Virus record (IMG/VR): IMGVR_UViG_3300020037_002731
Coordinates: 20,352-84,351 of that record
Direction: 5' to 3' (one strand)
DNA length: 64,000 nucleotides
From: a virus
Lineage: Duplodnaviria; Caudoviricetes
In this document: in pieces, positions 1 through 21,065 of the stretch
Layout: each line of letters starts with the position of its first letter
Numbering within the stretch: position 1 is the first letter of the stretch
Notes under the pieces: model-generated
Told to the model about the DNA's origin: nothing
The model's input: the letters and a program-made list of their open reading frames with translations, nothing else
Databases searched by the model: none
Position numbers and translations under genes: made by a program

Positions 1-906
1 AATAATATCTTCACCTATATTAGCATTATTTTGTTTACCTTTTAAAGCATCTTTAAACGAATAATTATCTTTATAAGCAGATTGCACCATTTTAGAAGGT
101 ATACTTAATGGTTGTAGTATGTTTAAAGGATTATCTTCTTTCTTAGCTTCCTCTTGTGATAATGATGGATTTTTAAAAGCAACTGGACTTCCTGCATTTC
201 CTACACTTAACAATCCTTGTTCAAATTTACTCCAAATAGAAGGTTCTATTTTACTTGAATAACTACTGTTTTTAATAAGCTCTAATTCTTTTTGAGTAAA
301 TCCTTGTAATGTTTTTAATCTATCATTAGAATAATCTGTATCAAAGGTAGGTTTTCTTTTAAATATATTTTCTACTACTTTATCATTAATTCTTTTATCA
401 TATTCTGCAACATTATTAGGATTCATATTTGTAGATGAAATACCCATGCTTCTACTAAATTTAGGCATAGCTTCATCTATAAATCTATCCTTACTATATT
501 CTTTTTCAAATTGTCTTTTATCTTTTAACCATTGTGGAGCTTCTGCTGTTATAACTACTTCTTTTAAAGGTGTAGCAATATAAGTATCAGAATTTTTATC
601 ATAGCTCGTTAACTTCCCACTATTATACAAATCTCTATATTCAGGAGAACTTATATCATATTCTTTAATTTGGTTATCCTGATTAACTTTTACTTTTTTA
701 TTAGGAGGATAAACACTACCATCACCCGCATATTGACTTGTAACAGGTAATGTTTCTACTAAACTATCTATACAACCATGACAACCTTCTGATAGTTTTT
801 GTTTAACCCAATTTCTTTTATTTGCAGGAATTATTACTTTATCTCCATTAGAATTTTCAAGTATTAATTCATTATGTTCCGCTTCTACGTTTATATTTTT
901 ATACAT
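1..906 (-). CDS. Polyvalent/cargo-associated protein, 5' part (runs off the left edge of the window)
   Basis: Not in the ORF track. Manual translation from ATG 906 is open to position 1: MYKNINVEAEHNELILENSNGDKVIIPANKRNWVKQKLSEGCHGCIDSLVETLP...YAGDG. Starts 4 nt after the 911 stop. Confidence 0.8.
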   Translation of the reverse strand, partial: MYKNINVEAEHNELILENSNGDKVIIPANKRNWVKQKLSEGCHGCIDSLVETLPVTSQYAGDGSVYPPNKKVKVNQDNQIKEYDISSPEYRDLYNSGKLTSYDKNSDTYIATPLKEVVITAEAPQWLKDKRQFEKEYSKDRFIDEAMPKFSRSMGISSTNMNPNNVAEYDKRINDKVVENIFKRKPTFDTDYSNDRLKTLQGFTQKELELIKNSSYSSKIEPSIWSKFEQGLLSVGNAGSPVAFKNPSLSQEEAKKEDNPLNILQPLSIPSKMVQSAYKDNYSFKDALKGKQNNANIGEDII

Positions 907-910
907 AATA

Positions 911-1993
911 TTAATTTTTAGGAATTACTAAACCATACTTTGCTGTAAATTGAGTATTACCATTTTTAATACTAACCCCATCTTTACCAATAGTTAAATC
1001 TATTCCGCCTTCTTTGTGTGTAGGATAGCCTTTTAAATCTTTAATTACTTTCCATTTACCTCCTTTAGTAAAGGCTGTAGCTAATCCTTTTTCAGCTTTT
1101 AATTTACCTTTGCAATCTATTTCAAGTAAACCTTCTTTTTCTAACTCTCTTATTTTAGCTTCTACATCAGATTCTTGTACTTCTGTAACTGTTTGTTTTG
1201 CAGTTGATTGTATAATAGATTTAACAAAGAATGTAACCCAGTTTGAATCCTTATTAAGTAACTGTAAAAATGAGCTTTGCTTAAAAGATTCATCATATTT
1301 ATTATGAATATCTTGTAATTTATTTTCAAGTGTATTATTAAATTTCTTATACCAATCTTCTTGAAATTTATTAAACTTTTCATTAGTTCCTTCTGAAATA
1401 CCTTCTTCATATGGTCTTACTCCATATTTCTTCTCAAATTCATCTCTTAGAGTATAATGTTTATCTATTCCGCCATCTTCAGTTAAAAGATTATAGTTTT
1501 CATTAAATAAATTTACTATTTCAGGAGTTAGATTAATAGTTCCAATAAGTTTACCATTAACAGATTTTCTATATCTTACTTCTTGTAATTGTCCAAAATC
1601 AAAAATCTTTTGGTCTGATAAGTCAATATCAGGTTTATCACTAATTTCATATACATAAAAAGTTCCTGTTTGAGGATGATTAGAAGCACTCCAGTTACCC
1701 ATTAAGGCTGCTCCAATAGATTTACTCGCTGAGGTTTCAGGTATTTGAGATTTCTTAAATCCACCATATTTAGAGGTAACTAATCTATGTTTACCTTCAT
1801 AATCTTCTACTTGTTCAGTAAAAGAAGTGGGTAAAAATCCAGTTTCATTTCCTAAATCAACATTAACTACTCTGTAAAACTTATTAGGTTTTGATACAAG
1901 AGATTGCTTATTAGCTAATGGTTTAGCAATTTGCTCTACAAATTCTTCTTTAGAATCATAGGTTACTCCTTTATATATATACTTACACGCCAT
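911..1993 (-). CDS. Polyvalent-type module protein with a putative R-S-E ADP-ribosyltransferase-like domain
   Basis: 360-aa ORF with FYRV...TSASKS...FYVYEI...QEVRY. The C-terminal THKEGGIDL resembles HEQGGI in the 940-aa cargo protein. Confidence 0.55.
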   Translation of the reverse strand: MACKYIYKGVTYDSKEEFVEQIAKPLANKQSLVSKPNKFYRVVNVDLGNETGFLPTSFTEQVEDYEGKHRLVTSKYGGFKKSQIPETSASKSIGAALMGNWSASNHPQTGTFYVYEISDKPDIDLSDQKIFDFGQLQEVRYRKSVNGKLIGTINLTPEIVNLFNENYNLLTEDGGIDKHYTLRDEFEKKYGVRPYEEGISEGTNEKFNKFQEDWYKKFNNTLENKLQDIHNKYDESFKQSSFLQLLNKDSNWVTFFVKSIIQSTAKQTVTEVQESDVEAKIRELEKEGLLEIDCKGKLKAEKGLATAFTKGGKWKVIKDLKGYPTHKEGGIDLTIGKDGVSIKNGNTQFTAKYGLVIPKN

Positions 1994-2712
1994 TATCTAT
2001 TATGTTTTTTAAAACTTCTATTTATTTGTTGCACTCCAGATTTAGAAATCCCATATAAAGGAGCTATTTCCTTATACATTTTACCTTGTTTTATAAGCTC
2101 AATTATTTCATTTCTTTGAGCCTCTGTCAATTTTTGTTTAGGAGAAATCTTATTGGTTCTTCTGGTTAAATGTTTTTCTTCCTCTTTTACAATATAATCT
2201 GGAATATTTTTCCAACTTCTATGAGCTTTAATTTCAGATATTGTAGTAATACCTACTTTATACTTTTCAGCAATTTCTTTCAAAGAGATATTAAAGGCAA
2301 TCATCTTCTTAATATCATAAATATCTTCTATTGGTATTTTAGAATTAGTTTGTCCTTCATTATAAAGCTTAATTCTTGTCTTAGACATTTTATCAATAGT
2401 AGAAGAATCAAATTCTACACAGTCTCCTCCTGTAGTTAAATTTAATCCATTAATATTATTACCTCTAAAACTGTCAAATTCCTTAACATATTTCTTTTCT
2501 AAAACATTAAGTTCCTCTCTTGTAAAATTTCCCTTTTCAACAATTTCAAAAGAATGATTTTCTACTCCATGTTTTAAAAAAGACCTATATAATAGAATTT
2601 GAGCCTTACAATTTAATTCTTTATATCTGTTAAGTCTATATTCAACATCTTTAGATTGTCCAATATAGATTTTATTAGTAGGGGAAATAACTTTATAAAT
2701 TCCTGATTTCAT
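1993..2712 (-). mobile_element. Free-standing GIY-YIG homing endonuclease with C-terminal HTH repeats
   Basis: GIYKV...KIYIGQS...R motif and two HTH-like segments. The true start is probably ATG 2712 because the track start (2745) overlaps the promoter -7 box. Confidence 0.88.
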
Positions 2713-2731
2713 TTTTAGTATATTTGAACTA

Positions 2732-2763
2732 CAAAGATACAACATTAATTTGTAATTTCCAAA
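2732..2763 (-). promoter_or_regulatory. Bacteroidota sigma70-type promoter for the GIY-YIG gene
   Basis: Minus strand TTTG-N20-TATCTTTG, matching the -33 TTTG / -7 TAnnTTTG consensus. Confidence 0.8.
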
Positions 2764-2781
2764 TTTTATTGAAAAAAGTTA

Positions 2782-4212
2782 TTAACATTCTACTTTAAGT
2801 TCTCCACTTTTCTTTAATTGTTCAATAATAGCTTCTACATTACCTAAATTTCTTCCTTTTTGGAAAATTTCAGATTGTACTTCTAGTATTCTACGGGTTT
2901 TAGGATTTCCTTCTAGTAAGTCAGATAAATATCCTCTTGTACTAATAACTTTAGATTTATCAACTTTAGCTACAGTATCATCTATATCAGATTTCCAATC
3001 TTCAAAACCATAAGTAGCTCCTCTTGCATCAAATCTTTTCTTAAACTCATCTTTAGGTATAGTAATTACTTTATCAAAGTCAGACATTCTTTCTTTAAGA
3101 ATATTAGTGTTTGAAACAAATAACCTTTTACCTTCTTTTTTAGCTTGTAATTTTAATCTATCAAATAGATTAAGCATAAATTCATTATACTCTTTAGGTT
3201 TTCTACCTTTATATTCTTGTCTTGTTTCAGAACTTCTATTAGTATCTATAAAAGCAATTACTTCATTTGCATAATCATCATCTAAACTAATAAAATCATT
3301 ATTTCCTTTTTGTTTTAAATAACTTTTACCAATAGTAGGATGTCCAAATATTATTTTATCATTTTTTGTTATAGGATTATATTGAGCAGTTTCACTGTTT
3401 AAAAAATCATCTTCTTCTTTCCAACCAACTATTTTGTTTTCTTTATCATCACTTCTAAACCATCCAATACCATTTTCAGTACTAAATTGAGCATGTCCTT
3501 TAATACTTGGAATAATATCAGGAATTCTTATTTCATTTTCAGTGTAATTAGTACCTCCTGGAACTGTTAGATTAGAGTAATAGGAAGTAGGCTCACTATA
3601 TAAATATTCTTCTTCTCCATATTCTTCTCCAGTATCTATATCTCTAAAAGAAGATTTAGTACTTTCTTTATTTAAAGCAGTATTAATTTCAACACTATAT
3701 CCATAATTAGCTAATAAAGAAGCTATTAATTCTCCTTTACTCATACCTTCAGAGTAAGTATCTTTTAATAATTGAATTTGTTGAGAACTTGCACCTTTAA
3801 GATCATTTAAAAATCCTTGAAAGTTCTTACCAGGCTCTCTAACTTTATTGGAGCTAAGTAAGTCTATTATTCTTAAAGAATAATTAACTTCATCTGAATC
3901 TTCTACATTAGCAAATAATACTCCTTGTAGTTCTTTAGATACTGGTAATACATCAACACTTAACTTATGCCTTCCTGGAGCTTCAGTTTGAATACTAGCT
4001 ACTTTAGCACCTAATTTCTTATTAGTACTTGATACAAAATTATAAGCTGCCTGAATATTATTTTTCAGGGTGTATAATTTGTTATTGAATTTTCTAAAAG
4101 CTTTACTATCTACAGCATCTTGAAAGACCTGTACATGAATTTCTGATAACCTTTCTTTTTCAGTTTCAGAAATTTCTTCTTTTTCTATATAATTAAATTT
4201 ACAGTTTACCAT
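2782..4212 (-). CDS. Large-polyvalent-protein-type module with an inserted P-loop NTPase/kinase domain
   Basis: PGGTNYTE...GHAQF...GWFRSD and RILEVQSEIFQKGR flank a GHPTIGKS Walker A region. Confidence 0.65.
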   Translation of the reverse strand: MVNCKFNYIEKEEISETEKERLSEIHVQVFQDAVDSKAFRKFNNKLYTLKNNIQAAYNFVSSTNKKLGAKVASIQTEAPGRHKLSVDVLPVSKELQGVLFANVEDSDEVNYSLRIIDLLSSNKVREPGKNFQGFLNDLKGASSQQIQLLKDTYSEGMSKGELIASLLANYGYSVEINTALNKESTKSSFRDIDTGEEYGEEEYLYSEPTSYYSNLTVPGGTNYTENEIRIPDIIPSIKGHAQFSTENGIGWFRSDDKENKIVGWKEEDDFLNSETAQYNPITKNDKIIFGHPTIGKSYLKQKGNNDFISLDDDYANEVIAFIDTNRSSETRQEYKGRKPKEYNEFMLNLFDRLKLQAKKEGKRLFVSNTNILKERMSDFDKVITIPKDEFKKRFDARGATYGFEDWKSDIDDTVAKVDKSKVISTRGYLSDLLEGNPKTRRILEVQSEIFQKGRNLGNVEAIIEQLKKSGELKVEC

Positions 4213-4215
4213 TTC

Positions 4216-7200
4216 TTATATTGTTACACAATTTGGGATTTGATCATATTCTTCTTGAGTAATATTTCTTAATTCATCAGGTTCTTGTGGAATACTTTCA
4301 TAATCTATAAAATCATCTAAATCAGAAGTATTATTAGAACTTAGTACAAATACATTATTAGTAGCTCTTGACATACCTACATATTTAAGTTGCTGTCTTA
4401 ATTCTAAATCTTTAAATGCATCAATAGTATCTGCTAACAAAAGTACTTTATTATAAGTTCCACCTTGAGATTTATGTATAGTATGTGCATACCCATAATC
4501 TAAAGTTTTCTTTACAATGTAATTACCAGTTTGATTTTTTAAATCTTTCATAAAGGCTAATTGACTTTGTAATTCTCTAGCTCCAGCAAACATTTGTGCT
4601 GCTTTCTTTCTGTTGCCAGTCTTCATAGCTATTGCACCTTCTTTATTCATTGCTTCTACTTTCTGTACAAATTTAAGTACTTTATTAGGATCTTCAGTAT
4701 TATCTACAATAAATACATACTTATTACCATCCTCTGAATTTAAAGTATTTTTAAGTACAACCTGGTATCCAGAATAACTTTCATTGATACTACCAATTTG
4801 TTTATTACTCTTTTTAGCACTAAGTACTTCATAATCTCCAGAATTAATAATTAATGGTTCTCCAGTATTATAATCTATATCAAAATTATCATATCCCATT
4901 AATATATCTCCAGGTACTAATTGTTCATTAGTGTTAAATAATATTCTTCTAACTAAAGTATTGTATTCTTTAACTATTTGATTAGTACCAGATAAAATTC
5001 TAAAGAATAACTTATTCTGTTTAAAATTATCAGAAGTAAATGCTGCACTAATTATATCATTAGCTTCTTTAGTACTATCCATGTACTGTACTCCAATTCC
5101 TTTCTCATTAACTTTACTAGTATAGGTAAAGTCTTTTCCATTTCTAAGGTTAGTACTTTCTTCAAGTATAGCATTATCTCCAGTTCTTTCAACTTTAGTT
5201 AATTGAATTTGTGGATTTTGATTAGTACTAAATACTTTACTAATATTTTTCTGTCCTACAGGTTTAATTTGTCCCTTATCCCCTACATAAATAACCTTAA
5301 TATTGAGTTCTTGTATTTTCTTTTGAATAAAATCATACAAAGAATCTGATACCATACTACTTTCATCAATAATAAGTAAATCTCCTCTTTGGATTTTAAC
5401 TTTATTTTTTTGTGCAAATTCAAGATCTCTAATATCATAGTTACCTAATTCATCAAGTCTAATATCAGGAGTTAATCCAAATAATTTATGAAGAGTAAGA
5501 ACTCTAGCATTAGGATTATTAAGCTTAGTTACTGCATTAGCTCTATGTGTAGGGGCAGTATAATAAGGGTATCTATGTTGAGAAGATAAGTACTTATCAA
5601 ATAATGATATTAAAGTAGTTTTACCAGTTCCAGCATATCCTGATAAAGTAATTTCTTTATTACCAGAATTCATGAACTCTTCAAGCTTAAGTAAAGCTTT
5701 TCTTTGTTCATTATTTAAAGCAAATGGTAAGTACAATTTATATCCACTTTTAAAAGTAAATTCCATTGGATTACCTTCAATAATTTCTGGCTCTTCTTGG
5801 ATATTTGGATTAGGTAATATCTCTTCCTGTACAGTTTTTTCAGATTGTGTAATTGGTCTTATAGAATACACAAATCTACTTTGATTTCCATTTACAAAGT
5901 TTGAACTAAACTTATTATTTATTGTAAAATCCTTCCAATGCTCAAATCCTTCATTTTTTGCAAAAGTATTAAGATCTTGAGATATTCCATTAATTTTAAG
6001 ATCTATTTCTGCACCTTGTTCATCATTAGCATATCCTTGCAAGTACTCAATTTTTGCTTCTCCTATTAATTTAATTTCAATTAAAGTCCCATCTGGAAGT
6101 TTATGAGTACCCTCTGATAACTTTTCTTTTCTTATTGTAGTTGTTTTAGTTCCTGATTTTATTTTCTCAATATTATCAGATTGCATTGGTAAAGATAATA
6201 CTTTTTCTGGAGATTCCAAAACTTCAGATCCTTCAATTCCTTGAATTATTTCTGGAGAAAGAACTATAGTTTCTTGATCTTCTGGAGAAATTTCAAATCT
6301 TTCTTCAGGTATTTCTTCTTCATTTGTCTTAGGTTCTGGATCTCCTTGAATATCTTTGTATTTTTTGCTTAATTCATCACTAAGAGCTTTATTTCCCTCT
6401 GGAGTATTAATCCAAGGTTTTAAGTACTCATTACTATACAATTCTATACTAAATCTGTACTCATGTACTGGTTTGTACTCTTTAGGTAAGGAATCTTTAT
6501 TAACATTAGATCTGTAATTATTAGAATTACTTATGTAGTTTCTAATAAATTCATTCTGCAATTCTGCTGAAGTTTTTCCAGTTAATTCTTTAATAACACT
6601 TTCACTAGGATTACTTTTAGCTAATTCAGTATTTAGTTTCTGTAAATTTTGAGCTAAGTTTCTTAACATTTGAACTGGAATAAATCTCATAAATGAGTTA
6701 TTTCCAAATTCCATGTTATTCATAGCTGCTTGATAATTCAATAAATCTGTAGCAAATTGAGCTATTTCAGGATTACTTGAATGATACATTTGATTAATAC
6801 TATCAATAAATACCTCACTTAATTCTTTAGTAGGAGTTGTAGTACTATCAAATTTAAGTATATGTAAGGGAGTAGTATTACCCTTATCTCCAGGACTTAA
6901 TGGTTTTAAGTACTTAATGAATTTATTCTGTTTAAATTCAGGATACTTAAGTAAATTCTTAAACTTAGTTGTAATTAAATCTTCTGAAGTAGTATCTTTT
7001 AATTGAGTAACTAATCCTGCAAATTTTACATTAGGGTTTAGTGCTTTGTACACTTTCATCTGTAAATAAGTACTTAAATTAGCTCTTACTTTAGGAGTAT
7101 TTTTAAAAGTACTACCTTTAAGTAATGATAAAGTTTCATTCTGAATATTCCTAAACATTTCAGTTTCTTGCAAAAATAAATTTCTAGCAATATCAAGTAC

Positions 7201-10200
7201 TTTTCGTAGATTTCTTACATTATTAACAATGTTCTTTTCATTTTGAAGTAACTTAACTGTATCAAATGGATTAGGTATTGGATTACCATTTTTATCTAAT
7301 TTAGGAATAGTTAGTTCATCATATGAATTTAAGAAACTTCTTGCAGTATCAAATGAAGATCCAATAATTCTGGTTAAAGTATTAAGTCTTGATACATTAA
7401 AAGCAAAACTACTTATTTGTTGTGCTTTTATGTACATTCTTAAAGCTTTTACTTGAATCTGTAAGAACTCTTGAGAGTTTTGATCCATTTCTAAAGCATC
7501 CCATAATTCTTTACTAGTTAAATTATTAGGCACTTCCTTATTCTTAAGTTTACTCATGTAATCATTAAGCAATGGAGCTAATTCTCTAGGTTTTAAGCTT
7601 CCAGCTTTAACAATAACAGGTTGTACACTTAAAGGAGCATCACCATCTTTAATATTAATACCTAATTGATTTAAGTAACTAAATATACTTACACTTCCTA
7701 CAAGCCAATGAAATGTACTAGCCATTGGATCTTTACTATTATCAATAGTAGTACTTACCTTTTCAGAACTATAGTTATTTTTAAGGTAAGTTACATCATC
7801 AGGAGTATTAAATGTCTTATAAGTTTCTCCATTGAATTGTATATAAAACTCTGGATTTAAATCAACTCTATTCTTAGTTAAGTTAGCTCCAGTACTTTGA
7901 GCTAGTACAGCACTTCCTCTTAAAGTAGTACTTGCAGTATTATCATCCCAAGCTTTAATAAGACCATCTGGTGTAAAAATATTGTAAGTAATTTTATCTG
8001 TACCTAGTATCTTTTCTATTTTCTCTTTACTTTCTTTAGTATCATCAGTTGTACTAGCTTGTTTAAAATACTTCTCAAGTTCAGGCTGTTGCATTACTTC
8101 TTCTAACTTAATAATAAGCCTGTTATTTAAAGCACCTTGAGATTCAGGACTTCCTTTTAGTATAAAATCATCTAATGTTCCAGGAAGATTAAATTTCTCA
8201 AGAACTTGTCTTGCTGCATAATCTCTAAGATCATTAATATCTTCATACCTTTTTTGTAAAGCCTCTTTTAAGTCTCTTCTAGTTTGTTTAAATAACCACT
8301 CAAAAGAATCTTTATCATCAATGTACCATTCATTAATTTTTCTTTGAAGTTTTAACTCTTGTACCTCTTTAAGAATTTTATCATATCCTAGTTCAGTTAA
8401 AGTTTTACTTAACTCTTTCTTTACATCTAGATTATTATTTAAATACCAATCTCTGTACTCTTCCCATTTATCTTCTGTTTCTGTAGCATCTCCATAGTAT
8501 TGCTTACCATGTCTTTCTTTACTAAATATAAATAAACTATCATCATCAAAGTCTTGTCCTGCATACAAAGTTAATTGTGGAGCAGCTATAACTATATCTC
8601 CCATGTAATCAGGTAAAATATCTACTATCTTACTTCTTCCCATGAAGTTATAACCTTGAGTAGGTACTCTAAGTGAAACTACAGTATCTCCTATTTTTAA
8701 TCCTAATCTTTTAGCAGTGTACCCTGAAATAACAATTTCTCCTACTGGATTACCATTTTCCCAAGTTACTTTTAAATCTGATACTGGATAATCATTGTAC
8801 TCATCACTATTTCTTTGTGAGCTAGGTATTACTTCTCCATTCTCATCTCTAATAGTCTGATATATGATAGGAGAACCCATAGTTAATTTAGCTCCACCTA
8901 ATTTATGTTGAAATGCATCCTTAAATCCAGATAAATATATCTGTTCTAACTTCTTTCTTGTATGTGCAAGATTTAAAGTGTATTCAGGAATTCCAACAGT
9001 ATCTCTAAGAAGTTCAATCATTTGCATATCAGAAGTAGTCTCCTCTATAATATCCCTATACTTTTGAAATACATAAGATAAATCACTCTTTAAATTTCCT
9101 TGTTCATCAATTAATTGTGAACTTAAAAAATCAAAAGTATTATTTCTTAATTGTACTTGAATATCTTGAATCTCTTCTTTTAATAGATTATTTTTTTCAT
9201 TATCTAATAAACCAAAATCTATTAATTGTTGAATTTGAGTTAGCCAAGGTACTCTAGTCTTATCTTTACTCTCCTTTAGTACTTGTTCTCTTCTGTACTT
9301 TCTAGGTACTTCATATATTGTAGGATTTTCTCCTGTTATTGGAGTACTTTTTCCAAAGAATATTTTAGCTGCACTTTTAGGTACAATTAAATCTGCATTA
9401 TTATTTTGAAGTAATTTCCACCTGTTAAATCCTTGTTCTTGACCTTTCTTAGCTACCCATTCTTTACCATTCCAATATCCAGTATCCCAGGGAGTTAAAG
9501 TATAGATACTCATTTTATAGTACACTCTATTACCTAAAGTATCAAATCCAGCAGTTACATGCTTTTGAGATACAAGATCTAATGATTGTATTTCTTCTCT
9601 AGTCAAAGATACTGGATTTCCCTCTGCATCTAATTCCTCTCCATTAAGTTTCTTTAATGCAAGTTTTTGCAATTCAGTTAAAGTACCTAAAGCTTTTAAA
9701 TCTTTAAATTTACCCCTAGGACTTTGAAATACTTGAGCATCATCAGGATTTATAGGTTTCTTATAAAACTTCTTAGCTTCTTCACCTTCTGGCTTAGTCC
9801 ATTGTACTTCTCCACTTTCAATATTAACCCAAGCTTCAGTATTTTCTGTATAAATAATCTTATCATTTCCTTCTCCCATATCTTTACCACTAGCATTAAG
9901 AGAACTTTCTCTTTTAAATCTTTCAGAAAATAAAGCATTATAACTCTTTTCCCAAGTACCTAAATCTATGTACTTAAGTTGAGATAGATCTCCTTCTGTT
10001 AATTGTTGTACAGCAGAGTTATTAATAAGATTATTTAAGAAGAATTGATACAAGTATTCCTCTGTAAATTCCATTCCTTTAACCTCATGTTTCTGTATTT
10101 GAGAAAGAATATCTGCCTGGATAATAGGAAGTACAACACTTTCAAAGTGAGTATTAATATCAGCTTGAGTCTTAATTTTTTCAAATATTTCAGGATGATT

Positions 10201-13200
10201 ATTAATTACTGGTAAGTATAACCATATTGGTACAGTTACTTTACCATAATCTCCTTGTAATCTCTTGTATTCTTGAGTAAATAAGTTCTTTAAAGCTTGT
10301 ATTCCATCAGCACTAATCTTTCCTTCTTCATACAAGTTTCTAAATGGAACTGTAACTCCATAAAAAGATCTTTTATCACCTATAATACTAGGAGCAGTTA
10401 TGTAGTACCCATTTTTATCTCTATTCTGAAATAATCCATGAAGTACTCTAAGTACATCTTGAGCATCAGAATCTTTGTAAGTTTTACCTTCTTCAAAAGA
10501 ATTATCTCCTATGTAAAATATCTCCAAGTTTTGGAATCTTCCCTTTATTAAATCTGTATTATCTCCAAATAAGAAATTATTAAATTCCAGGTATTCTCCT
10601 TTCTTAGTACTTACTTTTATATTTTGAAGTGTTTCATATTTTTCAGATAACTCTTTTAATAATTGTGAATAACTACTATAAGGTACATAAGTGTATCTAT
10701 TAGTGTTATCTGAAGCTCTATAATTAGGAATAATAAAGTTCTTACTAAATTGAGCATTAGCATTAGCTATTGCTAATAATCTTCCAGATAAATTACTATC
10801 TAAGAAAGGATTTCTTATTTCTGTACTTTCTTTTGAATTACCAGTATTTTTAAATAAAATATCTTGTAACTTAATTAAATCTGCACTAGTAATATCTCCC
10901 TGTTCATTCTTTATAAGTTCTCTAAGTACTAATGAATCTTCATCTGTATTATCAAACATTACTTCTAAATAACTTTCTTCTAATTCAATACCTAAAGAAT
11001 TAAATATCTTCTTAACTACAGTACTTTTATGTAAATTTCCTTTAATAACATTACTTCCATCAACAACCCATTTATCTGATACAGGTTTATCTTCAAGGAA
11101 AGGTACTAGATTTTCTAAATTGTATTGAAGATCTTTTCTGAATTTTTCATCTTGTAATAATTTATCATCTATTACTAAGCTATAATTAGTACTCCAATTA
11201 TCAAAAGTATAAATTCCAGCATCATGTTTATTAGTTTTCTTAACAAGTACTTTCTTATCTTGAGTAAATACTGTTACATAAGGTAATCTAGCTAACTTGA
11301 ATTGATTAACAAACCTAGTTAAAAACATTTCATCCTGAAAAGTAATTCCTTGAGGAGTTTCTTTGCTGTATTTTTTTTCTGTATTTAATTTATTGTATAA
11401 AGCATTAATTTCAGGATTTTTAGTTCCTAAAGCTTTAATTGTACCAAGTACTTTATTAGCATCTTGATTAGTTAAAATACTAAGAAGTTGATTATATACT
11501 CTAGGAAAATTTACAGCAGTTTCTATTTCTTTACCATAGAAATTAACAGTGTAAATACTACTAGCTATGAAAGTTTTAATTTCAGAAGATACTCTATCTA
11601 GTGTATTTACTTCAGAATCTAATCTATCATACTCCTTCATATCCTTATCTACATCAGTATCAAAGTTTTCTTCTTCTTCTGTAATAGGATTATATCTTAA
11701 ATATTTTAAATATTTTTCAGCTTCACTTTGAACTAAAGCTTTATTATTTTTAATACCAAAGTTATACTTCTTAAATAATTTCTTTAGTTGATCTTTCTCA
11801 AACTCTGAAGTTTTAGAATTAATTAAAGCTAAATTAGATTTAGAAAAAGGATTGTATTCTTCAATTAAATCATTTATAATTGTATTGATACTCTTAGTAT
11901 TATCTAAAGAACTAGCTTTAGCAGTAATTAATGCTATTAAGTTTCTGCTCTCTTCAGCACTTAATCCACCTACTAATTTAGCTTTAACAAAGGGACTAAT
12001 AGGATTACTTTTATTAATACTTGAATTTACAAAAGCTCCTCTATCAATTTTATTGAATAAATCTATTGTCTTTACATTACCTGTAAAGAAATTAATAATA
12101 CTGTCAAATAAATCAAATATAACTTTTTTCCAAGGTTTAGGTTGATTTAATTCTTTATTATTTCTCTTATCTGCATACTCATCTGATAATTTTTCTTCAA
12201 ATACAAGATTTTCAATATCTTTTCTTGAAATAATTTTATCCTTAAGTAATTTAATTAAATCAGGTCTTTTGCTTAAAAGATCTTGTACTTCTGAATTTAA
12301 TTGTTCAGGACTGTAATTTAATTCTTTACTTTTAGCTTTTAAGTATCTTTCTTGTTCTTGAGGACTTAATACAGTACTAAATACAGCATGGAAAGCTTCA
12401 TGATCTACATCAAGATAACCCATTTTTTCTGAAATATATACTGCATTATCTCTATAAAATCCTACAGGAATTCCAATTACATTCAACTGATCTAGTACTC
12501 TTTCTATTCTTTCTATACTTATTCCTGAAGGAATTTGAGATAATAACCTAGCTCTAATTTCATCATAAGTTTTAGGTTCTGAACTTAATTGAGATTCATC
12601 AGTGTAAATTTTAGTTTTATTAAAGTCTTTATTACTTTCATTCCAATCTCTAATTAATTCTTGAATTTCTTCTGGAGTGTATCCTGCTACAATAGCACTA
12701 TCTATTATATCTTGAAGTTCTGAAGAGTATTTAGATTCTACTTTAGTTTCTTTAATATCCTCTTGTATTTCCTTTGTTTCAGTAGTTTCTTCAGATATTT
12801 TTTCTTCTTGCTGTTCATTAATAGTTTCTTGATTTAAAACTTTAGGATCAAATTTAAACAATAAAGTATAGTTCTTTAGTACTTCAGGGTTAACTCTAAT
12901 ACTAAATTGATCAATACTAGCATTTGTAGGATCAATACTTTGTCTAAAAGAATTTTCATCAATTTCTTTAATCTTATTTTTAATACTAGCATTAATAAAA
13001 TTAATAAGATCTACTTCAGTCCAATTAGTTATATCAGGTAAAATAGTTCTATTAGTAATCTTATTTCCAATACCATACCCTAAAGCTAGCTGCATTTTAT
13101 TGCCAGCTTTATCATTATGTACAAATTTAATTACATCTCCTGGTAGTGAAGCTATCCAAAAGTTAATATCATTGGTAATTAAATCAGCTTGTTCTCTTGT

Positions 13201-16200
13201 AATATTAGGATTAGCATCAATTTTAGCTTTAATGTCTTTAATGTTCTGTAAAAAATCAGTACTTGGTATTGGTTTAGCTTGAATAGGTAACCATCTTCCT
13301 AAACCATTAATAAGTTTAGCAAATACAAAGAATGATTTTCTAAATCTATTATCTTTATGAAATTCATACTCCTGATCTGATAAGAATGGAATACCAGTCA
13401 TATCTTTACCATTAATACTTTGAGTTCTAGATACTTCAGATACTATAGGAGAATCTTTAAAAGCACCTTCAAATAATGTAGAATCTAGATCTATAGAAGG
13501 TTCATCCCTTGGTATCCATGATACTTCTCCACTTAAATCAAAATCTACTGCTCCTTTAGGTAATGGTACTTCTGGTAAATTTTGAGTACTAAACCACTTA
13601 ACTAAATCATCATTAAATCTCTTTAATAAATCCCAATTAGCTTTAAATGTATCAAGTTCTGATTGAGTAAAAGGTTTACTTCCTAACTTTTCATCATAGT
13701 TACTAAATACTCTATTAAATTCAGTTAGAGTCCATTTAGCATCATTAAAATCTATAGTAACTCCATTAGCATCTACAAATAAATTAGGATTATTTATTCC
13801 AGTAATATTTCTTCCTTCTTCTGGTACTTCTCCTGTTTCTGGATCTGTAATATCTAAAAGAATATCTATATCATATCTACCTTGGAGTTTAATTTCTTTA
13901 TTTCCAAATAAAGTTCTTTGACCATTTTTTTGTTCTTCTTCAAGATTAGCATTAACTTGTGATTTATTTACTTTAATACTAACATAATCTTTCCAGTTAG
14001 GAAGTTTAGCTATTTTATTAATTAATTCTTTAGTTTTAGCAGAAAATCCTCTATTACTTGCATACCCTTGAAACCACATTCTAGTAAAATGGTTTTCTCC
14101 ATAAAGTACTTGCTTAGTTCCTTTATTAATATTAGTTTTACCTGGCTCATAGTACCCATTTTCTTCAGTATAAGTATTACCTTTTTCATCTTCCCATACT
14201 CCTTGAGGATTTACTTTTACTTTAATTTTACTTCCAAGTACTCCTTGTTTTTCTATTGTAATATCAAAAGAGTCTGTAACTATAGGAGGTTGAGGAGGAG
14301 TAGGTGGTGTTGGAGGTTTTTCTTCAACCTTTACTTCAGGTTTAGGAGGATTTTGTTTAGTTTCAATCTTTTCTAAGTTCTCTTTAATACCTTTCTCTGA
14401 AGTTAAATCATTGTAAGCTTTAGTATATATCTCTCTTCTTTTATTTAATTTAATAATATCATTAACACTTTCTATTAAATGTTTATGATGTACTGGATTA
14501 GTATCTTTAATTTCCTGATTTGTAGCTTCAATATATTCTTCTTTACCTTTTTTATCCAAGGTATTAAAATAAATATTATTAAAACTAACTCCAAAAGAAT
14601 TTAAATCAGCATTAATCTTTAGTATTCTATTATTAGTATTATCTAATGAACTAGCAGTATGAGTAGCTAAGTTCTGTAATTCTTTAAAAGTTAAGTACTT
14701 AGCAGTATCTTTCTTTTGATCATAAGGATTAGGTAAATTTAGTAGTACTGCATCATTAACTTTCTTAATATTATTAATTTCTTTAACTAAAGAATTTATA
14801 GTATCATTACTGTCCCATCTTTGAGTATCTGCTATAGTAACATCATTACCAAAAACTTGATTTAATTCCTCTGCACTAGCATTTTTTAATGAATTAACTC
14901 TATCTATTAAAATACCTAAAGTTCCAGCTTGTAAATTCTGTTGAACTAAAGATACTATAGAACTATGTCTATCATTGAAATAATTAAATTTATCTCTGTT
15001 AGTTATAGCCTCATCAGCTAATTGTTGATAAGTTAAAGTTCTATCAGTTTCTAATAACTTATTTTTCATAACCTCATTTAATTGAGGTAACATCTTATTA
15101 GCAAAATCTAACTGAAATTTCTTTCTTTCAGCATCACTTTTAGCATTTCTAAAATGTCCTAAAGTTCCTGCACCACCACCTATTAAACCTCCAATTACAG
15201 TACTTTCTAGCCCTTCCTTGGTAGTTAATCCATCATACAAGGCTTTACCTATACTTTCAAATATATTAGCATTATTACCATTGTACTTATTATCTAAGTA
15301 ATCATTAATGGCTGCATTACTAGCAAACTGTAAATATTCTTGACCTCCTTCTGTAACAATACTTTCAGTTACAGGATTTTTAACTTTTCTAAAAGCTTTA
15401 GCATACTTACTTCCAGCATCTTCTATTAATTTACCATCTTTTAGTACAGTCTTAAGTCCTGCTTCTACATCATTAGCTCCAGGTCTAATTAAATTCTTGA
15501 AGATAAAAGTATTAGTAGGAGCTAGTACTGCCATGTTAATAGCAAAGTTAGCTAAACTACCAGAGTTAGCTATTTCTTCTTTTTGAGCATCACTTAAATC
15601 ATTTCTATCTTTTAATGTTTCAAGAATTTGATCTTTAGTTTGTCTAGCTTCTAAGGAACTTTCCATAGTAGCCATAATAGTACCTAAAGTTAATTGAGCT
15701 TTAAGATTAGGACTTATTGTATTAATACCTTTACTAGCTGCTTGTACTGCTGCTTCAGCATCTTTAAATTTAGTTCCTACTGAAGCTGCTTTACCTAAAT
15801 TAAAAGCTTTAGTTAATGCTGCACCAGTTAAAAAACTTCCTGCTGTATAACCAGCACCACTTAATAAAGCATCAAGAAAATGTCCTGAAGCTAAGTTTTC
15901 ATAACTAAAGAAATTACTATCTTTTTGAGCTTGTGATTGATATACTTTAAAAGTATCTTGAAACCAGTTATTAATAGGATCTACTACTCCTCTGGATATT
16001 TCATTATCAAATATTTCAGATAGTCCATTTACATAAGCAGTTTTAGCTGATTTACCTTTAGTCAATTCATCTATTTGTACAAATGGAACTTTTAAAGCTC
16101 CATAAAATATAGCTGGAATTTCTAATGCTGCATTTAAAGCACTACCAGCAAAATGCATACTTGCATTTCCTAGTACATCCCAATTACTTTGATTACTATG

Positions 16201-16422
16201 CCTAATATCATCTCTTAAAAATCCAGACATTAATCCATAATCTAAACCATAAGGTTTTAAATTATTAAACTCTCCATACTTTCCTATATTTTCAGATAAG
16301 TTAGGTAATACTTTACTTCCAGGACTAGGTGAACCTACAAACCCATCTCCAACTAAAGAAATATCTTTAGGAAAAGAATCTGTATTATTTTTATTTAGAT
16401 TAATTGTTGTTGGAAATCCCAT
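4216..16422 (-). CDS. Virion RNA polymerase polyprotein, 4068 aa (crAss-type RNAP core + HExxH zincin + ASCH-like + C-terminal RecD/Dda-like SF1B helicase)
   Basis: RVPTQ (~8670) and GQDFDDDSL catalytic DxDxD (8539-8553); HEAFH (12388-12402); IKSGTKTTTIR; GYAGTGKT (5617-5640), IIDESSMV, HKSQG and YVGMSRA. Located in the crAss cargo locus. Confidence 0.88.
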   Translation of the reverse strand: MGFPTTINLNKNNTDSFPKDISLVGDGFVGSPSPGSKVLPNLSENIGKYGEFNNLKPYGLDYGLMSGFLRDDIRHSNQSNWDVLGNASMHFAGSALNAALEIPAIFYGALKVPFVQIDELTKGKSAKTAYVNGLSEIFDNEISRGVVDPINNWFQDTFKVYQSQAQKDSNFFSYENLASGHFLDALLSGAGYTAGSFLTGAALTKAFNLGKAASVGTKFKDAEAAVQAASKGINTISPNLKAQLTLGTIMATMESSLEARQTKDQILETLKDRNDLSDAQKEEIANSGSLANFAINMAVLAPTNTFIFKNLIRPGANDVEAGLKTVLKDGKLIEDAGSKYAKAFRKVKNPVTESIVTEGGQEYLQFASNAAINDYLDNKYNGNNANIFESIGKALYDGLTTKEGLESTVIGGLIGGGAGTLGHFRNAKSDAERKKFQLDFANKMLPQLNEVMKNKLLETDRTLTYQQLADEAITNRDKFNYFNDRHSSIVSLVQQNLQAGTLGILIDRVNSLKNASAEELNQVFGNDVTIADTQRWDSNDTINSLVKEINNIKKVNDAVLLNLPNPYDQKKDTAKYLTFKELQNLATHTASSLDNTNNRILKINADLNSFGVSFNNIYFNTLDKKGKEEYIEATNQEIKDTNPVHHKHLIESVNDIIKLNKRREIYTKAYNDLTSEKGIKENLEKIETKQNPPKPEVKVEEKPPTPPTPPQPPIVTDSFDITIEKQGVLGSKIKVKVNPQGVWEDEKGNTYTEENGYYEPGKTNINKGTKQVLYGENHFTRMWFQGYASNRGFSAKTKELINKIAKLPNWKDYVSIKVNKSQVNANLEEEQKNGQRTLFGNKEIKLQGRYDIDILLDITDPETGEVPEEGRNITGINNPNLFVDANGVTIDFNDAKWTLTEFNRVFSNYDEKLGSKPFTQSELDTFKANWDLLKRFNDDLVKWFSTQNLPEVPLPKGAVDFDLSGEVSWIPRDEPSIDLDSTLFEGAFKDSPIVSEVSRTQSINGKDMTGIPFLSDQEYEFHKDNRFRKSFFVFAKLINGLGRWLPIQAKPIPSTDFLQNIKDIKAKIDANPNITREQADLITNDINFWIASLPGDVIKFVHNDKAGNKMQLALGYGIGNKITNRTILPDITNWTEVDLINFINASIKNKIKEIDENSFRQSIDPTNASIDQFSIRVNPEVLKNYTLLFKFDPKVLNQETINEQQEEKISEETTETKEIQEDIKETKVESKYSSELQDIIDSAIVAGYTPEEIQELIRDWNESNKDFNKTKIYTDESQLSSEPKTYDEIRARLLSQIPSGISIERIERVLDQLNVIGIPVGFYRDNAVYISEKMGYLDVDHEAFHAVFSTVLSPQEQERYLKAKSKELNYSPEQLNSEVQDLLSKRPDLIKLLKDKIISRKDIENLVFEEKLSDEYADKRNNKELNQPKPWKKVIFDLFDSIINFFTGNVKTIDLFNKIDRGAFVNSSINKSNPISPFVKAKLVGGLSAEESRNLIALITAKASSLDNTKSINTIINDLIEEYNPFSKSNLALINSKTSEFEKDQLKKLFKKYNFGIKNNKALVQSEAEKYLKYLRYNPITEEEENFDTDVDKDMKEYDRLDSEVNTLDRVSSEIKTFIASSIYTVNFYGKEIETAVNFPRVYNQLLSILTNQDANKVLGTIKALGTKNPEINALYNKLNTEKKYSKETPQGITFQDEMFLTRFVNQFKLARLPYVTVFTQDKKVLVKKTNKHDAGIYTFDNWSTNYSLVIDDKLLQDEKFRKDLQYNLENLVPFLEDKPVSDKWVVDGSNVIKGNLHKSTVVKKIFNSLGIELEESYLEVMFDNTDEDSLVLRELIKNEQGDITSADLIKLQDILFKNTGNSKESTEIRNPFLDSNLSGRLLAIANANAQFSKNFIIPNYRASDNTNRYTYVPYSSYSQLLKELSEKYETLQNIKVSTKKGEYLEFNNFLFGDNTDLIKGRFQNLEIFYIGDNSFEEGKTYKDSDAQDVLRVLHGLFQNRDKNGYYITAPSIIGDKRSFYGVTVPFRNLYEEGKISADGIQALKNLFTQEYKRLQGDYGKVTVPIWLYLPVINNHPEIFEKIKTQADINTHFESVVLPIIQADILSQIQKHEVKGMEFTEEYLYQFFLNNLINNSAVQQLTEGDLSQLKYIDLGTWEKSYNALFSERFKRESSLNASGKDMGEGNDKIIYTENTEAWVNIESGEVQWTKPEGEEAKKFYKKPINPDDAQVFQSPRGKFKDLKALGTLTELQKLALKKLNGEELDAEGNPVSLTREEIQSLDLVSQKHVTAGFDTLGNRVYYKMSIYTLTPWDTGYWNGKEWVAKKGQEQGFNRWKLLQNNNADLIVPKSAAKIFFGKSTPITGENPTIYEVPRKYRREQVLKESKDKTRVPWLTQIQQLIDFGLLDNEKNNLLKEEIQDIQVQLRNNTFDFLSSQLIDEQGNLKSDLSYVFQKYRDIIEETTSDMQMIELLRDTVGIPEYTLNLAHTRKKLEQIYLSGFKDAFQHKLGGAKLTMGSPIIYQTIRDENGEVIPSSQRNSDEYNDYPVSDLKVTWENGNPVGEIVISGYTAKRLGLKIGDTVVSLRVPTQGYNFMGRSKIVDILPDYMGDIVIAAPQLTLYAGQDFDDDSLFIFSKERHGKQYYGDATETEDKWEEYRDWYLNNNLDVKKELSKTLTELGYDKILKEVQELKLQRKINEWYIDDKDSFEWLFKQTRRDLKEALQKRYEDINDLRDYAARQVLEKFNLPGTLDDFILKGSPESQGALNNRLIIKLEEVMQQPELEKYFKQASTTDDTKESKEKIEKILGTDKITYNIFTPDGLIKAWDDNTASTTLRGSAVLAQSTGANLTKNRVDLNPEFYIQFNGETYKTFNTPDDVTYLKNNYSSEKVSTTIDNSKDPMASTFHWLVGSVSIFSYLNQLGINIKDGDAPLSVQPVIVKAGSLKPRELAPLLNDYMSKLKNKEVPNNLTSKELWDALEMDQNSQEFLQIQVKALRMYIKAQQISSFAFNVSRLNTLTRIIGSSFDTARSFLNSYDELTIPKLDKNGNPIPNPFDTVKLLQNEKNIVNNVRNLRKVLDIARNLFLQETEMFRNIQNETLSLLKGSTFKNTPKVRANLSTYLQMKVYKALNPNVKFAGLVTQLKDTTSEDLITTKFKNLLKYPEFKQNKFIKYLKPLSPGDKGNTTPLHILKFDSTTTPTKELSEVFIDSINQMYHSSNPEIAQFATDLLNYQAAMNNMEFGNNSFMRFIPVQMLRNLAQNLQKLNTELAKSNPSESVIKELTGKTSAELQNEFIRNYISNSNNYRSNVNKDSLPKEYKPVHEYRFSIELYSNEYLKPWINTPEGNKALSDELSKKYKDIQGDPEPKTNEEEIPEERFEISPEDQETIVLSPEIIQGIEGSEVLESPEKVLSLPMQSDNIEKIKSGTKTTTIRKEKLSEGTHKLPDGTLIEIKLIGEAKIEYLQGYANDEQGAEIDLKINGISQDLNTFAKNEGFEHWKDFTINNKFSSNFVNGNQSRFVYSIRPITQSEKTVQEEILPNPNIQEEPEIIEGNPMEFTFKSGYKLYLPFALNNEQRKALLKLEEFMNSGNKEITLSGYAGTGKTTLISLFDKYLSSQHRYPYYTAPTHRANAVTKLNNPNARVLTLHKLFGLTPDIRLDELGNYDIRDLEFAQKNKVKIQRGDLLIIDESSMVSDSLYDFIQKKIQELNIKVIYVGDKGQIKPVGQKNISKVFSTNQNPQIQLTKVERTGDNAILEESTNLRNGKDFTYTSKVNEKGIGVQYMDSTKEANDIISAAFTSDNFKQNKLFFRILSGTNQIVKEYNTLVRRILFNTNEQLVPGDILMGYDNFDIDYNTGEPLIINSGDYEVLSAKKSNKQIGSINESYSGYQVVLKNTLNSEDGNKYVFIVDNTEDPNKVLKFVQKVEAMNKEGAIAMKTGNRKKAAQMFAGARELQSQLAFMKDLKNQTGNYIVKKTLDYGYAHTIHKSQGGTYNKVLLLADTIDAFKDLELRQQLKYVGMSRATNNVFVLSSNNTSDLDDFIDYESIPQEPDELRNITQEEYDQIPNCVTI

Positions 16423-18173
16423 TATTTTATACTTAAGTTTCCTGTTTGAGGATTAATGAAATATATTTTTGATTTTTTTGTATCTGTATTAGTTACTCTA
16501 TAACTTCCATCTAATAACTCTTCTGAAGTATATCTTCCAGGACTAGCTCCTGATTGAGAATTACTTGGAATTTCAAATTCATTATAAGCAAATCCATCTT
16601 TATTAATATTAGGACTTTGAGAGGCTCTTAATATTCCATTAGCAAAGTATTGTGGAGCTTGTCTAGCTGTAATAGTAGGAGATTGAATAACTTTAACTAT
16701 TTGCCCTCCATTGTCTATAGCTACTTCTGTACTACCATATTCATGAGGAGAAAATACATCTTCATAAGTACCAGAGTAACTTACAGGCTTTCCTTTAAAT
16801 GTACCTACAAATTCTTTACCAGTGTATATTTTTCCACTTTCATCTGCATAAGAGAAATTAGAAGCTAATCCATCACCTACCATTCCTTTACCATCACTAC
16901 CTGGAAAGAAAGCTTCATTATAATTTTTTCTATAAGGAGAGTTAAGATTAGGTATAACTAAAGAACCTTGTACTGTAGCATTTTGTCTAAAATTTAAGTA
17001 ATCAGACACACCTTTAGTTTTTTCTTCTTCAGTATTCCAATTATCTTGTATAAAGCCTCTATTTTTAGCAGCTTGTTCTAAGTTTTTATAACCTTCAGTA
17101 TTTACATCTAAAGTATCATTATCTTCAAATATATTCTTAAATATTGCTGTAGCTAACCATTGAAGCCCACCAGACATTCCTACTACTCCAGGAGTTTCAT
17201 TTAAATCTTTCTGAAATGATCCATGAGTTCTGATTTTACCATCTGAACTTACATAATAAGGAGATTCTCCTTGAATCTTACTTCCTGGTTGAAATATACT
17301 TCCTGGGATTAAAGGACTTTCTTTTTCTTCAAACTCTTTATTTAATCTTGCATACCCTAAACTTCTTCCAGTGTAATCAAGTTTATTAATTGCATTTGAA
17401 TAACTAAATTGTGAAGACCTAGCTCTATCAGCTACCCACTCTTCAAATGTTTTATCTGTATTTCCATTATATTGTTCAAATCTATGATCTTTAGCCATTT
17501 GTTGATAAGCTTCAGAACTTAATCCAGATAAAAACATTGAGCCTATTCTATCATCACTAACTATCCCACCTTTTCCATCAGTAGCAAATCTGCCTGTAGT
17601 ATTATCAATAAAATCTCCATTTACAAAAGATACTCCCATATCTCCTATATCCTTTAAATTATCATGAAATTCTTTATTATAATCATAATAAGGATCTATA
17701 CTAGGAGGAAGTTTTAAAGTATTAGCTACACTTGTATCTCCCATTTGATACCTTTTAACAGCATCTAAATAGTCTAAAGCATTTTGATCTCTATAATCTT
17801 TACCTAATTTTTCTACATTCTTTTGGTACTCATTAAAAGCATTAGTTCTTTGGATAGCTCCATACACTTCTTTATCATTACTAAATGTACTTCTTAATCC
17901 TCTTAATTTATTTTGAGTAACTGGATCATCTAACTTTCCTGAAACCAAATCATTCATTCCTTGTACTAAAGAATTTACTTTGTTTATTTTATATTCTGTA
18001 TCTGGATTAAATACTGTTGCATAGTTTCCTTCTGTATTAAGAAAATCTTGTCCAGAATTTATAATATCCTGAATTCCAGCATCTTTCATTAACCCAACCT
18101 TAAATGCAGCTTCAAGTGGTTTGTGTACATATTGTGTTGGAGTTATAGCTCCACTGTATCTTGATGTAGCCAT
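16422..18173 (-). CDS. Ejected/cargo virion protein (crAss cargo locus)
   Basis: 583 aa, between the cargo-1-like gene and the RNAP gene. TAATG stop/start overlap with RNAP. Confidence 0.6.
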   Translation of the reverse strand: MATSRYSGAITPTQYVHKPLEAAFKVGLMKDAGIQDIINSGQDFLNTEGNYATVFNPDTEYKINKVNSLVQGMNDLVSGKLDDPVTQNKLRGLRSTFSNDKEVYGAIQRTNAFNEYQKNVEKLGKDYRDQNALDYLDAVKRYQMGDTSVANTLKLPPSIDPYYDYNKEFHDNLKDIGDMGVSFVNGDFIDNTTGRFATDGKGGIVSDDRIGSMFLSGLSSEAYQQMAKDHRFEQYNGNTDKTFEEWVADRARSSQFSYSNAINKLDYTGRSLGYARLNKEFEEKESPLIPGSIFQPGSKIQGESPYYVSSDGKIRTHGSFQKDLNETPGVVGMSGGLQWLATAIFKNIFEDNDTLDVNTEGYKNLEQAAKNRGFIQDNWNTEEEKTKGVSDYLNFRQNATVQGSLVIPNLNSPYRKNYNEAFFPGSDGKGMVGDGLASNFSYADESGKIYTGKEFVGTFKGKPVSYSGTYEDVFSPHEYGSTEVAIDNGGQIVKVIQSPTITARQAPQYFANGILRASQSPNINKDGFAYNEFEIPSNSQSGASPGRYTSEELLDGSYRVTNTDTKKSKIYFINPQTGNLSIK

Positions 18174-18174
18174 A

Positions 18175-20997: not shown

Positions 20998-21065
20998 GGT
21001 AAGAAAATAAAGAATATTATATAAACGGGTAAATATAATAAAAAAGGTTATCAATAGATAACCCT

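Follow-up and report, generated by a model that had tools for sequence, protein, structure and literature searches.

The stretch of DNA described here (the window, 64,000 nucleotides [nt] in length) corresponds to bases 20352-84351 of an 84-kb viral contig, 28% G+C (IMG/VR record IMGVR_UViG_3300020037_002731; Duplodnaviria, Caudoviricetes). At its left end is a row of open reading frames (ORFs) that begins with a giant gene encoding an RNA polymerase and runs past the window start into the adjoining part of the contig, and it is the short cysteine-bearing peptides at the ends of the encoded proteins that are of concern here. From gene order and homology the locus is identified as the downstream end of the RNA-polymerase virion cargo block of a crAss-like phage. 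All of the genes involved are on the minus strand and are listed in the order of transcription, together with the cysteines of each product; coordinates are those of the window except where the genome is specified.

4216-16422, minus strand: giant ORF, 4068 amino acids (aa), first in the transcription order; single cysteine, residue 4065
2782-4212, minus strand: P0001, a 476-aa link protein separated by a 3-nt gap from the giant ORF; two cysteines, residues 4 and 476
2732-2763, minus strand: promoter-like site (TTTG, 20 nt, TATCTTTG) that closely follows the stop of P0001 and precedes the nuclease gene
1993-2712, minus strand: GIY-YIG gene between P0001 and P0003, 239 aa from an ATG at 2712, stop at 1993-1995
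911-1993, minus strand: P0003, a 360-aa link protein; two cysteines, residues 3 and 294
1-906 (first 302 residues; genome 19323-21257), minus strand: 644-aa ORF running past the window start; two cysteines, residues 42 and 45 (CHGC)
Genome 14893-19323, minus strand: 1476-aa ORF, after the 644-aa ORF; single cysteine, residue 4
After the 1476-aa ORF: small ORF of 131 aa, followed by a strand switch to replication genes

An earlier note on this DNA, made from its letters, drew attention to short strings at the ORF junctions (IPNCVTI, MVNCKF, KSGELKVEC, MACKYIYKG, EGLLEIDC and CHGC), all of which are present on the minus strand, as is the 3-nt gap that it reported. It correctly placed the 476-aa ORF after the giant, but in taking the 360-aa ORF as the next one it passed over the 239-aa GIY-YIG gene that intervenes. 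Its description of IPNCVTI as the end of the RNA polymerase needs to be amended: the giant ORF is a fusion of an N-terminal part similar to gp67 of phage phi14:2, a two-barrel RNA polymerase, and a C-terminal Dda/RecD-like helicase (AAA_30, E 8.7e-26; phrog_325, E 8.2e-81), and it is the helicase that forms the last domain, with the DFDDD polymerase motif at 8539-8553 on the minus strand (residues 2624-2628). The homing-endonuclease gene, the apparent origin of the smaller ORFs as pieces of one gene, and the near absence of cysteine from these proteins were all missed.

Seven cargo ORFs of this genome contain a total of eight cysteines in 8,547 residues, as compared to a cysteine content of 1.35% in the other ORFs. 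Five of the eight are no more than four residues away from the end of an ORF, and another closes an internal tail motif (see below). Their placement follows the order of the chain, such that the first protein has a cysteine at its C-terminal end only, the middle proteins have one at both ends, and the last has one at its N-terminal end only. Where genes are fused there is no joint cysteine, and the gp67-like and gp66-like parts of the giant have none between them. The other two of the seven cargo proteins are encoded upstream of the giant (16422-21054; 583 aa and ~940-959 aa); these contain no cysteine at all and are positioned as are gp46 and gp45 of crAss001.

The same terminal-cysteine rule is seen in twelve environmental relatives among the related IMG/VR contigs (designated here by L numbers), which were gathered using P0001 and P0003 as queries, and in the gut phages cr55_1 and cr124_1. 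In phi14:2, gp67 has a single cysteine as its last residue (1797), gp66 has cysteines at residues 3 and 2179 of 2180, and gp65 has a single cysteine at residue 3. The crAss001 proteins show the corresponding pattern, with a single cysteine in gp47 at residue 2339 of 2341, cysteines in gp50 at residues 5, 1334 and 2404 of 2412, and a single cysteine in gp49 at residue 5. The rule also holds in DAC15 and cr4_1, and in crAss002 provided that gp33 starts at Met33 (MSC). In the latter phage (L093, MN917146, 7270-7370) the sequence from Met33 reads MSCTPSNP, which is like the starts in cr4_1, cr55_1 and L007, and the annotation of gp33 probably places its start 32 codons too far upstream.

Counts across larger sets give the same picture. 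Among 72 complete ORFs of at least 1000 aa in the related contigs, 84 of 113 cysteines lie within eight residues of an end, compared to 0.9 under uniform placement, and an ORF with a cysteine at its C-terminal tip is followed by one with a cysteine at its N-terminal tip in 19 of 20 instances. In 211 metagenomic homologues of P0001 and P0003, all but 22 of the 373 cysteines (351) are at an end or ~66 residues from the C-terminal end, and 164 of these homologues have exactly two. The junction motifs of the earlier note are conserved in homologues, and both the motifs and the cysteine placement are confirmed as real and far beyond chance. The pattern extends to the Leptolyngbya phage Lbo-JY46 (L095, PP438436, 6723-19629), in which a 1552-aa protein ends EVEVNC, its sole cysteine being the last residue, and the next protein, of 2748 aa, starts MSNCVFSYNGKT and has its sole cysteine at residue 4. 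Lbo-JY46 is a cyanophage that is not classified in the Crassvirales, yet it has the same joint.

The relationship to phi14:2 and crAss001 can be traced through several segments, noting that the E-values quoted derive from a small local database. Residues 52-433 of the giant match phi14:2 gp67 (E 2.4e-10), with the N-terminal part also matching crAss001 gp47; residues 2581-2633 match residues 1318-1370 of phi14:2 gp66 (E 3.6e-6); and residues 1048-1464 of the 1476-aa protein match phi14:2 gp65 (E 1e-10) and crAss001 gp49. A tblastn search of the phage collection with the polymerase core and the C-terminal part of the 1476-aa protein gave no match at the thresholds used. The gp67-gp66-gp65 genes of Cellulophaga phage phi14:2 and the gp47-gp50-gp49 genes of Bacteroides phage crAss001, both of them cultured phages, share with the window the genome position, the gene order and the terminal-cysteine rule. 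They differ in that gp67 and gp66 are here fused and a helicase is added, and in that the gp65-like gene is enlarged by polyvalent modules and spread over four ORFs, with a homing endonuclease at one of the cuts. The phi14:2 gp65-67 and crAss001 gp47, gp49 and gp50 proteins are virion components by mass spectrometry, and phi14:2 gp66 is a crystallized polymerase; by homology to these virion proteins, the cargo proteins encoded here would likewise be co-ejected.

The peptides at the junctions are of two kinds. The tail, at the C-terminal end of an upstream piece, consists of an amphipathic helix followed by G-x-L-x-(I/V)-x-C, and the head, at the N-terminal end of a downstream piece, begins M-x-(x)-C and continues with a beta-hairpin (x-Y-x-Y-K-G-x-x-Y) and then a helix. 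P0001 itself starts MVNCKF and ends KSGELKVEC, and the 1476-aa ORF starts MANCIYKYKG. The elements concerned are as follows.

4219-4239, minus strand: C-terminal tip of the giant, IPNCVTI, with the cysteine codon at 4228-4230; similar tips are present in relatives
2785-2850, minus strand: tail clasp peptide of P0001, residues 455-476, a helix and then G-E-L-K-V-E-C and the stop, ending in Cys476
1922-1993, minus strand: head clasp of P0003, residues 1-24, starting MACKYIYKG, with Cys3
1112-1168, minus strand: second tail, in P0003, ending in Cys294 (EKEGLLEIDC, residues 285-294)
914-1111, minus strand: 66-aa C-terminal domain of P0003
772-783, minus strand: CHGC of the 644-aa ORF, residues 42-45

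In twelve aligned pairs the invariant residues are the glycine and cysteine of the tail and M1, C3, Y7 and Y12 of the head, and where residues of the tail do vary, the exchanges are conservative ones in the protein (D/E and I/V). What comes after the tail motif is always either 0-1 residues or a conserved domain of 66 aa. When 1.84 billion representative proteins were searched with a profile of the head, there were 94 matches, of which 91 start at residues 1-4; the three exceptions are two unrelated repeat proteins and one protein matching just the unconserved later part of the profile. One relative of only 136 aa consists of nothing more than a head, two conserved blocks (blocks 2 and 3, described below) and a tail, with cysteines at residues 4 and 135. 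An unsplit domain joining tail to head was found neither in a regular-expression scan of 88 loci nor with a typed 50-aa tail-plus-head query, which recovered P0003 only (11 candidates scored, weak). In AlphaFold2 models the head forms a hairpin and a helix, with a predicted local distance difference test score (pLDDT) of 85-92, and the tail forms a helix followed by a strand that is unfolded when alone; these models fit docking by strand addition. Tail and head are accordingly read as dedicated end modules.

Comparison with the relatives indicates how the smaller ORFs arose. In most of them a single polyvalent protein of about 2000-2800 aa follows the polymerase giant, and the same region is here occupied by four ORFs of 476, 360, 644 and 1476 aa. 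Three conserved blocks can be followed through these proteins: block 1 (HAQF...GW.R.D), block 2 (RRILEVQSD.FQK) and block 3 (a NWVTFF block leading into GYEKVLFP.G.TA.KVEG). All three are within a single ORF in about 40 of 61 related ORFs, including those of L007 (2306 aa), L009 and L011 (2808 aa), and in L007 and L011 a P-loop module sits between blocks 1 and 2. In the window the blocks are distributed as follows.

3445-3501, minus strand: P0001 block 1, upstream of the inserted P-loop module
3322-3345, minus strand: Walker A motif of the P0001 P-loop module, inserted between blocks 1 and 2
2851-2901, minus strand: P0001 block 2, RRILEVQSE
1289-1918, minus strand: extra module of P0003, residues 26-235, a candidate ADP-ribosyltransferase (lead only)
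1196-1270, minus strand: P0003 block 3

Block 1, the P-loop module and block 2 are therefore together in P0001, the first half of block 3 is in P0003, and the second half of block 3 corresponds to residues 25-60 of the 1476-aa ORF. On this evidence P0001, P0003 and the 644-aa and 1476-aa ORFs are interpreted as pieces of what is one uninterrupted gene in relatives. Two additions mark each break, a tail on the upstream piece and a head on the downstream one, and the unsplit proteins have neither. The view that the ORFs are modules of an RNA-polymerase-associated cargo block, fused in some relatives and split in others, is thereby upheld. A structure model of the unsplit region has a pLDDT of 67, and no PDB match reached E 0.001.

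Two other origins for the small ORFs were considered and set aside. Stop-codon recoding is ruled out, as every stop is TAA and each ORF opens with an ATG. Ribosomal bypass, as in T4 gene 60, would have matching TGT take-off and landing codons and a stop after the take-off site, and fits the window by eye; it is ruled out by the 1-4 residues that follow the cysteine in relatives and by a gap of about 790 nt.

The first of the breaks contains the 239-aa gene, whose stop codon shares one base with the P0003 ATG. Its product matches Pfam GIY-YIG at 25.6 bits (cut-off 22.6), HTH_7 at 25.7 bits (cut-off 23.8) and TIGR01453 at 57.2 bits (cut-off 56.05), and is assigned as a free-standing GIY-YIG homing endonuclease with a C-terminal helix-turn-helix. 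The TTTG-N20-TATCTTTG site preceding it is kept before the nuclease genes of L006 and L010, as read from their sequences, and resembles the consensus for Bacteroidota sigma-A promoters. A host-type promoter within the late cargo operon would allow early production of the nuclease.

GIY-YIG genes, all scoring above the Pfam cut-off, are present in 11 of 12 tail-to-head gaps, and represent at least five lineages with 20-47% identity between them. The present phage and L078 share 81.6% DNA identity over 2903-1940, a segment that comprises block 2, the tail and the nuclease gene and extends 18 codons into the head, and outside of it the rest of both genes barely aligns. L006, L022 and L052 have nucleases that are 97-98% identical together with near-identical tails and heads, and these cassettes are flanked by different N-terminal modules and different downstream proteins. 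L006 is also the closest relative of the present phage, and has a different nuclease in the same gap; unsplit relatives lack the nuclease cassette. Clasps are located between blocks 1 and 2 in L039, L085 and P0006, between blocks 2 and 3 in this phage, L010 and L020, and after block 3 in this phage, L019, P0006 and P0223. This spread over sites and flanks argues that the unit is portable and marks points of module exchange, and we conclude from the alignments that block 2, the tail, the nuclease gene and the head move together as a cassette. Such a cassette would both make the breaks and promote the swapping of adjacent modules between phages.

A unit that spreads in this manner, is far more conserved than its surroundings and has a nuclease gene in nearly every gap invites the view that the tails and heads are simply passengers, carried by co-conversion of the flanks of a homing endonuclease and having no role as proteins, with their cysteines retained by descent. 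We consider this improbable. In phi14:2, crAss001, gut Suoliviridae and the cyanophage, which are distant lineages, the cysteine pair is retained at junctions that have no nuclease and gaps of just 0-14 nt; the proteins are otherwise purged of cysteine, the fused forms do not have these cysteines, and the tail substitutions are the conservative D/E and I/V.

A further possibility is that the break is healed by splicing, either of a group I intron carrying the nuclease or of a decayed or atypical split intein. TIGR01453 is named for group I intron endonucleases, cysteines flank the break as they do at intein junctions, and the layout is that of the fractured genes described by Dassa et al. 2009 (PMC2677866), in which a gene half, a free-standing nuclease with control elements and a second gene half follow one another, mainly in phages. 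However, an Rfam intron search of 1-6000 at E up to 1 gave no match (divergent introns can escape Rfam), the 22-aa tail and 24-aa head are too short for a Hint fold, whose halves in split inteins measure about 100 plus 35 aa or 25 plus 100 aa, and there is no Pfam intein or Hint match. Moreover, the tail ends rather than starts in cysteine (an N-intein has Cys or Ser as its first residue), there is no His-Asn before the head cysteine (a C-intein closes with His-Asn ahead of Cys, Ser or Thr), and the heads always open with an ATG at the ORF start. Splicing is accordingly considered highly improbable, and the locus differs from the split inteins of PMC2677866 both in having short flanking peptides instead of a Hint domain and in that any rejoining would rely on docking and on a bond between side chains rather than on a peptide bond.

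The second break has a more complex anatomy, with the tail ending in Cys294, the 66-aa domain, the separate 644-aa gene with its CHGC motif, and the head of the 1476-aa ORF following in that order. This set recurs in L006, L019, L083 and most P0003 homologues. In P0033, a metagenomic protein of 437 aa, a P0003-like link protein including the 66-aa domain is fused to the N-terminal part of the CxxC protein (structure model pLDDT 60), which indicates that a formerly continuous chain has been divided at the boundary between P0003 and the 644-aa ORF as well, in this case with no cysteines at the extreme ends. The CxxC pair could be a link in the chain, a redox helper or one half of a metal site.

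The anatomy of the junctions, their conservation, the cysteine rule and the spread of the cassette are established, and the explanation that we favor, with moderate confidence, is that the clasp peptides dock consecutive pieces into one chain, probably locked by disulfides, for packaging and ejection, with the nuclease cassette making the breaks; the docking, the disulfide and the ejection role are what we infer. The tail of one piece would dock to the head of the next, and the two facing cysteines would then secure the joint, most probably by forming a disulfide when the particle encounters an oxidizing environment. The giant, the 476-aa and 360-aa proteins, perhaps the 644-aa protein via its CHGC, and the 1476-aa protein would in this way form one linear chain in gene order, which would act like a polyprotein in being packaged one-to-one and threaded through the tail, and would fall apart in the reducing cytoplasm of the host. 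Since the bond would join last residues to first residues, the chain would stay linear and could thread the tail; internal disulfides would block threading, which would account for the loss of cysteines elsewhere in these proteins. Several disulfides hold together the solved crAss001 tail, which shows that such particles do become oxidized and makes disulfides in them plausible.

The motifs could alternatively be read singly, as protease cleavage sites or as capsid-targeting signals recognized by a protease, portal or scaffold; the internal proteins of phage T4 use short N-terminal capsid-targeting peptides. Cleavage of the fused forms is expected by Drobysheva et al. However, the motifs are at genetically encoded ends, set by stop and start codons and not lying within a polyprotein, such that cleavage is unneeded, and recognition by a common receptor leaves unexplained why the first protein lacks an N-tip cysteine and the last lacks a C-tip cysteine in every genome checked. 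We regard single tags as quite improbable. Among the roles that the earlier note had offered for the motifs, docking fits best given the first, middle and last pattern of cysteines, and neither a cleavage tag nor a packaging tag is supported.

Several observations weigh against the disulfide-locked chain. Additional internal cysteines, between one and three in number, are present in crAss001 gp50, in DAC15 gp076 and in some relatives. The model of the unsplit protein gives a poor fold for blocks 1 and 2, such that the case for a single domain built from the three blocks would come from their conservation. Where the 360-aa ORF gives way to the 644-aa ORF, the cysteines are not at the extreme ends but 66 residues before the end and at residues 42-45 after the start, and the wiring at that joint is ambiguous as a result. 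In addition, the two cysteines of a joint could instead hold a metal ion, and the particles assemble in a reducing cytoplasm, where a disulfide could form only later.

These last two points are also those that suggest a different arrangement, in which the ends dock non-covalently or via a shared metal ion and the cysteines are ligands or packing residues of a two-chain fold. The second break sums to four cysteines (the tail, the CHGC pair and the head), as in a zinc site, and the conserved non-cysteine residues of tails and heads suit strand pairing. The simple junctions nevertheless offer just two cysteines, with no conserved His, Asp or additional Cys; the tips CVTI, CNS and CK keep only the cysteine, which argues for chemistry rather than packing; and disulfides are present in crAss001 particles. 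Docking of this kind is unlikely, in our estimation, and a chain locked by disulfides at its joints is preferred.

Genes interrupted by a free-standing nuclease gene, with neither intron nor intein and with products that reassemble into a working protein, are familiar from other phages, as with mobE in nrdA of Aeromonas phage Aeh1 and mobA at T4 genes 39 and 60. To our knowledge, no dedicated portable end-peptides tipped with cysteine have been reported in those cases, and they differ further from the present one in that the same clasp is here found at three or more sites and in many phages. Phage N4 (L096) is comparable in a different respect, as its giant virion RNA polymerase is injected with partners. 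The ejected N4 gp50 (the 3500-aa virion RNA polymerase), gp51 and gp52 contain no cysteine, and are like the interiors of the proteins described here but without terminal cysteines. A cysteine-free interior may be common to ejected proteins, and the absence of tips in N4 suggests that these are an addition of the crAss-like lineage and not general to ejected proteins.

The modules between the joints show considerable variety. The link proteins returned nothing useful from Pfam, PHROGs or NCBIfam, and the window's 476-, 360-, 644- and 1476-aa ORFs contain no Pfam domains. The P-loop module weakly resembles nucleotide kinases. Residues 26-235 of P0003, which are absent from L006, have Arg, Ser-x-Ser and Gln-x-Glu in the order typical of R-S-E ADP-ribosyltransferases, and in the ESM Atlas the NarE, Scabin-like and enterotoxin-A families score 0.90-0.92, which is at the level of a lead only. 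The earlier note had called the modules interchangeable, and homologues do swap them, their Pfam domains including ART-PolyVal, Zeta_toxin/AAA_33, AlkB and His_Phos_1. The domain set of these homologues would fit the polyvalent-protein class of Iyer et al. 2017 (PMC5512222), long proteins that string together unrelated enzyme modules and are believed to be delivered along with the DNA, with the difference that the modules here are on separate genes bearing clasp peptides.

Terminal cysteines are not mentioned in the crAss001 atlas, in the phi14:2 polymerase preprint or in PMC5512222, the text of which contains none of the terms cysteine, disulfide, split, homing endonuclease and crAss, and a full-text literature search was also without a match; a terminal-cysteine link between cargo pieces was found in none of the papers searched. 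It is quite possible, and we advance this tentatively, that crassviruses and some relatives build a redox-cleavable pseudo-polyprotein through single disulfides at the tips, with a portable tail/GIY-YIG/head cassette that cuts the gene at new sites and leaves the chain intact. No phages are more abundant in the human gut than crassviruses, and if the proposal is true, a terminal-cysteine chain would be a simple answer to the problem of packing in fixed amounts, and passing through the tail, a cargo of ~0.7-1 MDa that includes the polymerase starting the infection. It would also explain the free tolerance of fusions and splits in the cargo block, and the clasp cassette would add a third option to introns and inteins as a means by which a homing endonuclease can reside in a gene without harm. 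If they dock as proposed, the short tail and head peptides could also serve as a naturally derived pair for assembling proteins.

Two smaller ORFs lie elsewhere in the window. A 140-aa ORF at 51787-52209 has no Pfam match at E 0.01, and no tie to the cysteine joints was found for it. A 199-aa ORF at 28521-29120 also has no Pfam match at E 0.01; it opens MNNCYIYRHIRLDKNEPFYIGIG, which is GIY-YIG-like, and is probably a second homing endonuclease.

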